64,000 nucleotides of DNA from a virus: positions 56,656 through 120,655 of IMG/VR virus record IMGVR_UViG_3300044638_006409. One strand, 5' to 3'. The notes beneath the pieces were generated by a model, which did not search any database, had not been told where the DNA came from, and was given only the letters and a program-made list of their open reading frames with translations. Shown here piece by piece: positions 56,207 through 56,285 of this stretch. Position 1 is the stretch's first letter, and the number at the start of each line of letters is the position of its first letter. Both the position numbers and the translations under genes were made by a program.

Positions 56207-56285
56207 ATTTGGTATTATATTATTTTCACAACGATATGGATGGTTTTTTTCATAAAACAAGATATTTATAATAAAATATAGTTTT

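Follow-up and report, generated by a model that had tools for sequence, protein, structure and literature searches.

The DNA considered here is a window of 64 kb (64,000 nucleotides (nt), positions 56,656 to 120,655) of the 120,655-base virus record IMGVR_UViG_3300044638_006409, and all coordinates below are those of the window. In it, a gene for an HNH-like protein that bears the genetic signature of a homing endonuclease directly precedes a gene for a DHH-like phosphoesterase, its presumed target, whose motif I contains an in-frame TGA (Table 1). Just upstream of the HNH gene, past the terminator-like hairpin of the preceding gene and ahead of a promoter-like motif, ATATTTAT, stands a 24-nt look-alike of the uninterrupted target site. 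An earlier note on this DNA had singled out this look-alike and offered three readings of it, namely an autorepression operator, a scar of the original insertion or, more speculatively, a short transcribed guide or template. The observation is real and stronger than first stated: the element recurs in 11 sequence lineages, where it is under a codon-like constraint. We propose, at a rough probability of 0.45, that the element is a target-mimic binding site, or operator, by which the endonuclease would regulate its own promoter.

Table 1. Features of the HNH–DHH locus in window coordinates
Feature	Position	Strand	Remarks
Terminator-like hairpin and T-tail of the upstream 301-aa gene (55252-56157)	56183-56209	+	8-pair stem at 56183-56202, then a T-rich tail; the predicted fold contains the hairpin
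Target look-alike (24 nt)	56221-56244	+	Likeness to the DHH site, copies in 11 lineages, period-3 constraint
T-run	56245-56251	+	Conserved, directly 3' of the look-alike
ATATTTAT, promoter-like motif of the HNH gene	56262-56269	+	17 nt past the look-alike
HNH-like, putative homing endonuclease gene (301 aa)	56286-57191	+	Two conserved Cys/His clusters, followed by a D-H...N...N motif
Second ATATTTAT motif, for the DHH gene	57170-57177	+	Within the last codons of the HNH open reading frame
DHH-like phosphoesterase gene (presumed target)	57192-58700	+	In-frame TGA in motif I
Predicted 17-bp mRNA helix	arms 57216-57233 / 57280-57296	+	3' arm is target-site sequence and abuts the take-off codon
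Interrupted target site, YFHQDL*LDG	57282-57311	+	CTT TGA CTG at 57297-57305, the proposed take-off codon, stop and landing codon

Likeness of the element to the target site

The look-alike lies 42-65 nt ahead of the HNH start codon (ATG at 56286) and forms the left edge of the HNH unit, being the first HNH-specific DNA at the locus. The 24 bases quoted in the earlier note are indeed found here, in the setting between hairpin and promoter-like motif that it described, and they are identical at 18 of 24 positions to the DHH site of the same cassette once six bases at offsets 15-17 are taken out of the latter. Of the span given in the note, 56221-56250, these 24 bases take up 56221-56244, and the remaining six bases are the first six T of the T-run.

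The DHH site itself is known from many relatives. With the DHH-like protein as query, viral contigs yielded 67 DHH loci; in 61 of them the site is uninterrupted (YFHQDLDG or YFHIDLDG), and the other six (L001, L002, L003, L006, L007 and L013) have the leucine-stop-leucine insert of the window. The 61 natural sites comprise 19 DNA variants of the type TAT TTY CAY CAA GAT TTR GAT GGT. Because these natural alleles are AT-richer than the cassette's own site, the comparison with that site understated the likeness: against the best of the 19 variants, the look-alike is identical at 21 of 24 positions. Scored against a degenerate natural consensus, the 11 lineage variants of the element reach 18-22 of 24, and 12-15 of 16 when only triplet positions 1 and 2 are counted. 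Position 10 of the element is A in 10 of the 11 lineages, whereas natural sites have C in 54 of 61. The sequences on either side of the element also differ from those around the targets.

Distribution among loci and linkage to the HNH gene

The HNH-like protein and its alignments, used as queries, brought up 31 HNH loci (21 viral and 10 metagenome contigs), or 32 with the window. As to whether the motif is kept upstream of homologous HNH genes, a question raised in the earlier note, the element is present at the same place in 20 of the 32 loci, which represent 11 sequence lineages (the window; L013; L072/73; L080; L071; L078/79/99/100; L087/88; L089; L093/94/103; L095-97; L098). In all 11 the T-run follows it directly on the 3' side, and the distance from the element to ATATTTAT is 17 nt in nine lineages, with L093 (18 nt) and L078 (14 nt) as the exceptions. 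Element and ATATTTAT block go together, the element being found in 11 of 11 lineages with the block and in none of seven without it. These seven, lacking both, account for the other 12 loci (L074/75, L076/77, L085/86, L090-92, L101, L081 and L102); in five of them (L074-77, L085/86, L090-92 and L101) the HNH gene abuts the preceding gene, while in L081 and L102 the HNH protein is a remote homologue (30% and 41% identity, respectively) and is encoded divergently to an adjoining, uninterrupted DHH gene. The DHH site of L081 is identical at 24 of 24 positions to a common natural allele; that of L102, a real DHH gene, reads CAT AAA GAT TTA GAT GGA and has an AAN triplet in common with the look-alikes.

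Conversely, the 61 uninterrupted DHH loci contain neither an HNH homologue (0 of 61 by tblastn) nor the element, a single match in L032 being unrelated, and none was found upstream of the DHH gene in the five interrupted loci that lack HNH, where the one match, in L001 at 6006, is likewise unrelated. A degenerate pattern of the element matches just one place in the 120,655-base genome. Searched exactly in IMG/VR, the degenerate pattern gave three matches, all on contigs known to carry the HNH gene; no HNH-less copy was found there with this pattern, which is a narrow one. As judged from these surveys, the element is confined to the company of the HNH gene.

To the left of the element the lineages have unrelated DNA (the 301-aa gene, an N6-methylase, a C5-methylase, a 123-aa gene and others), and the homology of the HNH units therefore starts at the element. 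HNH-specific DNA begins exactly there in at least eight differing upstream contexts; between the window and L013, for instance, the whole module of the 301-aa gene differs and the left edge at the element is identical. In the window (55229-56220) this gene stands with its own ATATTTAT motif and terminator between the N6-methylase gene and the look-alike, and it is absent from L013 (2864-2890). On both sides the module ends at ATAT/TTAT pieces of the promoter-like motif; from such alignments, this motif seems to serve as a junction for gene-module swapping.

A single genome was only suggestive as to chance, because random 24-mers of this AT-rich genome often find matches of at least 18 of 24: among 400 of them, 55% had one elsewhere, and among 3000, 92 (3.1%) had one on the same strand within 1.5 kb. 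Such figures are what speaks for a mere chance resemblance, and the earlier note had itself named frequent chance matches as grounds for giving up the idea. The look-alike is the only sequence in the window, on both strands, to reach at least 18 of 24 to the repaired own site, against an expectation of 0.08 per window in 100 dinucleotide shuffles. It is also alone at this level in the whole 120,655-base record, and alone there in matching natural alleles at 20 or more of 24. In 1.08 Mb of related loci, matches to natural alleles of at least 19 of 24 outside true sites were the eight elements then known, two unrelated sequences and the real L081 site. It is the comparison across loci, with conserved copies at the same place in 11 lineages and 21 of 24 identities to natural alleles, rather than the single genome, that settles the question at the level of sequence, and chance can practically be dismissed.

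Constraint with a period of three in an untranslated element

When the element is divided into triplets in the register of the target codons, the mean pairwise difference between the 11 lineages is 0.20, 0.11 and 0.50 at positions 1, 2 and 3, and an excess as strong as this, at any set of eight columns, arose in just 0.02% of column permutations (permutation p 0.0002). For the nine lineages with 17-nt spacing, the mean pairwise difference is 0.14 at element positions 1 and 2 and 0.52 at position 3, as compared with 0.10 in the T-run, 0.41 in the rest of the spacer, 0.03 in ATATTTAT and 0.51 in the leader, i.e., the 12 nt after the motif. The T-run, which has no terminator stem before it, is thus conserved about as well as the promoter motif. 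Positions 1 and 2 of the element are identical between the window and L072 (0 of 16 differing), whose HNH genes differ at 26 of 45 four-fold sites, and they differ at 1 of 16 between the window and L013, with 21 of 66 four-fold sites changed; in other words, HNH four-fold sites differ by 32-58% between lineages whose element positions 1 and 2 differ at 0-1 of 16. The G/C columns 7, 13, 19 and 23 of the element are retained in AT-rich surroundings. Taken together, these comparisons indicate that the element is under purifying constraint with a period of three.

This codon-like pattern is not explained by translation of the element, which is excluded because two lineages have in-frame stops (L071 has TGA at triplet 8, and L093 has TAA at triplet 1) and no start is conserved. 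Neither a start codon nor a ribosome site for the element was found to be conserved across the lineages, and the triplets 3' of it show no period-3 pattern. The sole open reading frame across the element runs on the minus strand (56063-56311), and the variable bases fall at its second codon positions. Freedom at just the wobble positions of the target codons would be expected if a protein had evolved to recognise coding sequence in which these bases vary. The interrupted DHH sites all share one fixed, GC-rich version of the site.

The promoter-like motif

As a word, ATATTTAT is not over-represented in the window (19 copies vs 14.9 expected). Its placement is another matter, since 9 of the 19 copies lie 8-30 nt ahead of the start of an open reading frame of at least 60 aa, vs a background of 2% (binomial P ~4e-11). 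Nothing element-like was found before the other copies in the window, which are preceded by a terminator stem or by unrelated DNA instead.

The target gene and its interruption

The DHH-like gene matches Pfam PF01368 with E 0.0054 and 17.4 bits, below the cut-off of 28.1. Its translation contains VDFAHG and TDHHD, and its uninterrupted homologues contain DLDG; we take DLDG, VDFAHG and TDHHD to be DHH motifs I-III. The insert splits D-L-D-G and always has the same make-up: a CTN Leu codon comes first, then a stop (TGA, TAG or TAA), 0-3 nt and another CTN codon, for a length of 6, 8 or 9 nt. CTT TGA CTG or CTT TGA CTT is found in the window, L001, L002/3, L006, L007, L013, L072/73 and L095-98, CTG TGA CTT in L093/94, CTT TAG CTT in L071, L074-77 and L087-89, and CTT TAA CTT in L101. 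The 8-nt form, CTT TGA CG followed by CTG or CTA, occurs in L078/79/99/100, and the 9-nt forms, CTC TAA GGG CTT and CTC TGA GGG CTT, occur in L085/86 and L090-92, respectively. As an 8-nt insert shifts the frame, readthrough cannot restore the DHH protein, whereas a hop from CUN to CUN can. The insert is apparently a natural stop-hop (CUN-stop-CUN), across which the ribosome would translate the DHH gene.

The predicted 17-bp helix, whose 3' arm ends against the take-off codon, retains all 17 pairs in every distinct interrupted allele (12 of 12), one of the pairs being A-U in nine and G-C in three. By eye, its 5' arm is absent from the uninterrupted L004 allele. A smaller hairpin is found at 57257-57279. 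Within 57201-57450, a 288-nt metatranscriptome contig (X20, record 21) and a 298-nt contig labelled as RNA-Seq (X19, record 19) cross the insert without a gap, differing at 10 and 20 letters. The insert would therefore be present in RNA, unless DNA was carried over into these libraries, which is possible. No RNA-library contig covers 56221-56244, which is uninformative either way.

Such hops have been built in the laboratory. In synthetic stop-hops in Escherichia coli, as described in the accessible part of a 2016 review, matched codons flank the stop and the peptidyl-tRNA re-pairs downstream, so that nine bases yield one residue; these were engineered constructs of low efficiency, and according to that part of the review no natural in-frame stop hopping was known (PMC5009743). 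By comparison, the insert described here is conserved in 28 of 28 loci with an HNH gene and a readable DHH gene, the helix abuts its take-off codon, and translation across it is predicted from sequence. A full-text search of the literature from 2015 on returned no report of a natural stop-hop.

The HNH-like protein

The 65 homologues of the HNH-like protein share C41, C46, C72, C75, C165, H169, C190, D244, N267 and N276 without exception, and H242 and H245 almost without exception. Neither the whole protein nor the C-terminal 100 residues of four homologues gave an HNH family in Pfam (noise only for the latter). In PHROGs it matches families of unknown function only, and a profile search gave no relative of solved structure. 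A structure model from 65 sequences has a predicted local distance difference test (pLDDT) score of 88.5, an earlier one from three sequences (pLDDT 34) having been unusable. Foldseek with this model returned nothing from the PDB at E ≤0.001. The best match by VIA-align is the Gme HNH nicking endonuclease (4h9d_A), with Z 4.6, a root-mean-square deviation of 4.1 and 71 aligned residues over model residues 200-282, and other HNH nucleases score Z 3.2-3.6, all of these values being below the tool's reliable level. The HNH assignment itself is therefore weak. The two Cys/His clusters that stand ahead of the nuclease motif make it plausible that binding is separate from cutting.

The genetic signature of a homing endonuclease is clear from the sequences compared: the gene adjoins its target, and alterations of that target are confined to loci that have, or once had, the gene. 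In all 28 loci where an HNH gene is followed by a readable DHH 5' end, the site is interrupted. In the naive and interrupted pair L004/L007, a tract has been replaced from the ATATTTAT motif to ~25 nt beyond the insert, within DNA that is 95-99% identical. A search of the genome for further HNH gene copies found just the one. The interrupted alleles that lack HNH (L001 3800-3870, L002/L003 3790-3870, L006 2715-2775 and L007 3815-3870) keep the insert and the 5' region of the cassette DHH gene, and both the HNH gene and the look-alike are absent from them. Their left junction is at the second ATATTTAT motif, the one within the last HNH codons (YLLIKK*), and these alleles may be either products of partial co-conversion or the result of HNH loss. 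A longer HNH 3' remnant in L002 was left unused, as it rests on ~9 extra bases.

Other features of the region

A predicted hairpin with arms at 56250-56258 and 56281-56289 would cover the HNH start codon in transcripts derived from upstream and not in those begun at ATATTTAT; it was dropped, since inspection by eye shows L013 and L072 to lack it. Further upstream lie two DNA methyltransferase genes (53688-54332 and 54355-55206; phrog_757; Pfam N6_N4_Mtase, E 1e-34), and a NUDIX hydrolase gene (59077-59463) lies downstream of the cassette. The virus record has an estimated completeness of ~41%. The stretch 56150-57450 is contained in lake-water metagenome runs.

Comparison with known homing systems

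The closest parallel to the element is the operator of I-TevI. According to the part of the I-TevI account available to us, this operator is identical to the homing site at 15 of 20 positions, is bound as tightly and is cut ~100-fold less, and similar operator-like sites have been proposed for I-TevII as well as for I-TevIII (PMC2988022). Both there and here, a sequence resembling the homing site stands just upstream of the endonuclease reading frame, at its own promoter, and the likeness seen here (18-22 of 24) is comparable to or higher than that of I-TevI as given in the same source. There are also clear differences. I-TevI is an intron-encoded GIY-YIG enzyme whereas the HNH-like protein is free-standing; the I-TevI operator overlaps a late promoter whereas the site described here ends 17 nt before the conserved motif; and the support for it, unlike that for I-TevI, is comparative (11 lineages and a period-3 constraint) rather than biochemical.

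As a whole, the unit is a parallel to the MobA/gene 60 element of T4-like phages and is, by its sequence organization, a MobA/gene-60-like cassette. As far as the accessible part of the MobA account goes (bioRxiv 10.1101/2022.08.31.505936), in both systems an HNH or HNH-like homing endonuclease gene adjoins the target gene, the recognition site is broken up by an untranslated insert that begins with a stop and lies between matched take-off and landing codons, the cassette brings along a diverged target flank of its own, and alleles exist that have the insert and have lost the endonuclease. The two differ in that the MobA target is a topoisomerase gene that is split, as opposed to an unsplit DHH-like gene here, and in that the MobA insert measures 50 nt with GGA as take-off codon, as opposed to 6-9 nt with CUN. 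The same part of that account makes no mention of a target look-alike upstream of mobA. The HNH protein of the window has no detectable sequence relation to a named family.

A proposed target-mimic operator and its alternatives

Based on the above data, we propose that the element is a cis-acting part of the mobile HNH unit, in which it would mimic the naive DHH target recognised by the DNA-binding part of the endonuclease. The HNH protein would bind the mimic and spare it from cutting, either since it lacks cleavage determinants, be they within or beyond the 24 nt, or through the A at position 10 in place of C, which might by itself protect the element. Binding would then tune transcription of the HNH gene, by repression or by activation, much as the homing-site-like operators do for I-TevI. 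Among the three readings of the earlier note, the operator is the best supported, given the linkage of the element to both the HNH gene and the promoter block, its fixed spacing and a constraint in register with the target codons, as these emerge from the alignments; the overlap with the promoter motif that a repressor site of this type would suggest is absent.

Several points weigh against this proposal. As the element ends 17 nt before ATATTTAT and does not overlap it, simple promoter occlusion of the I-TevI type is not evident, and the constant spacing could just reflect the fact that the element abuts the T-run of the promoter block. The need for target homology in recombination would predict the period-3 constraint equally well. 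The coincidence of the HNH-specific left edge with the element, in at least eight contexts, is left unexplained by an operator. Seven lineages lack the element altogether, and the assignment of the protein as HNH is, as noted above, a weak one (no Pfam match, a blank Foldseek search and a best Z of 4.6).

Two of these points would be accounted for if the element were a portable left homology arm, such that the left end of a broken target pairs with the mimic and its right end with the DHH gene beyond the hop, in the manner of the exon flanks of introns and inteins. HNH-specific DNA would then start at the element whatever lies upstream, as it does, the window and L013 would share this edge despite their different 301-aa gene modules, and a period-3 constraint would be expected if the element must match a target population with variable wobble bases; the element is also nearer to the naive alleles (21 of 24) than to the GC-richer own site (18 of 24). 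The product that this reading predicts, in which the recipient promoter and DHH codons 1-30 stand upstream of the element, is however found in none of the 20 loci, where inspection by eye for traces of codons 1-30 gave only ambiguous AT-rich bits, such as an ATG just before the element in L093 and L098. Moreover, 24 nt with 3-6 mismatches is very short for pairing, selection for homology should have removed the A at position 10 (10 of 11 lineages, vs C in 54 of 61 sites), and gene-module swapping at ATATTTAT junctions can explain the upstream diversity instead. We regard a homology arm, the main alternative to the operator, as rather unlikely. It is distinctly unlikely that the element is a generic part of the promoter, e.g., an upstream site for RNA polymerase or for another phage or host factor, with its DHH likeness a mere matter of history. 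Its position against the T-run and ATATTTAT block, with which it is kept or lost, would fit such a role; yet no similar sequence precedes the other ATATTTAT copies, the pattern is single in the genome, and the site of a generic factor would hardly drift with period three in the register of the target codons.

An origin as a piece of the DHH gene, the insertion scar of the earlier note, is possible, and a functionless remnant of the original insertion, or of a collapsed older gene copy, would make sense of the resemblance to eight DHH codons, of the AAA at triplet 4, which is known from a real DHH gene (L102), and of the ATAT, a possible promoter remnant, before the element in the window, L013 and L072/73. 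That the scar is neutral is nonetheless very unlikely, because it would then drift like the spacer: spacer and leader have reached 0.41-0.51 vs 0.14 at positions 1 and 2, these positions differ at 0-1 of 16 despite 32-58% HNH four-fold divergence, and the G/C columns are kept. A role as a short peptide or as a guide or template RNA has the codon-like conservation and the open frame YFHNDMDGFFHKTRYL* of the window on its side, and is extremely unlikely in view of the stops in L071 and L093, the lack of a conserved start or ribosome site and of any period-3 pattern after the element. The guide or template in particular, as put forward in the earlier note, found nothing in its favour. The element lies past the terminator and ahead of the promoter-like motif; being of the same sense as its target, it cannot pair with the DHH mRNA.

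Lastly, the target-mimic operator can be combined with a role in recombination. In such a joint reading, which is rather unlikely as a whole, the mimic bound by the HNH protein would be both an operator and the portable left arm of a self-contained homing cassette of a novel type that enters DHH genes whatever lies upstream, while at its other end a natural stop-hop of 6-9 nt, aided by the 17-bp helix against its take-off codon, would keep the target working and destroy the recognition site.

Implications

To our knowledge, I-TevI is the sole homing endonuclease shown to use a homing-site-like operator. If the target-mimic operator proposed here is true, autoregulation by target mimicry would extend to a free-standing HNH-like enzyme of uncultured lake phages, with an independent origin. 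The element would also supply a natural substrate that is bound but uncut, to be compared with the naive and the interrupted target, and the period-3 conservation of an untranslated sequence amounts to a prediction of the bases that the enzyme reads. If the joint reading is true, the codon-like conservation of the non-coding mimic would directly show the bases contacted by the endonuclease. With the element as its left edge and an apparently natural stop-hop as its right edge, the cassette offers a compact and testable parallel to MobA/gene 60 of T4.

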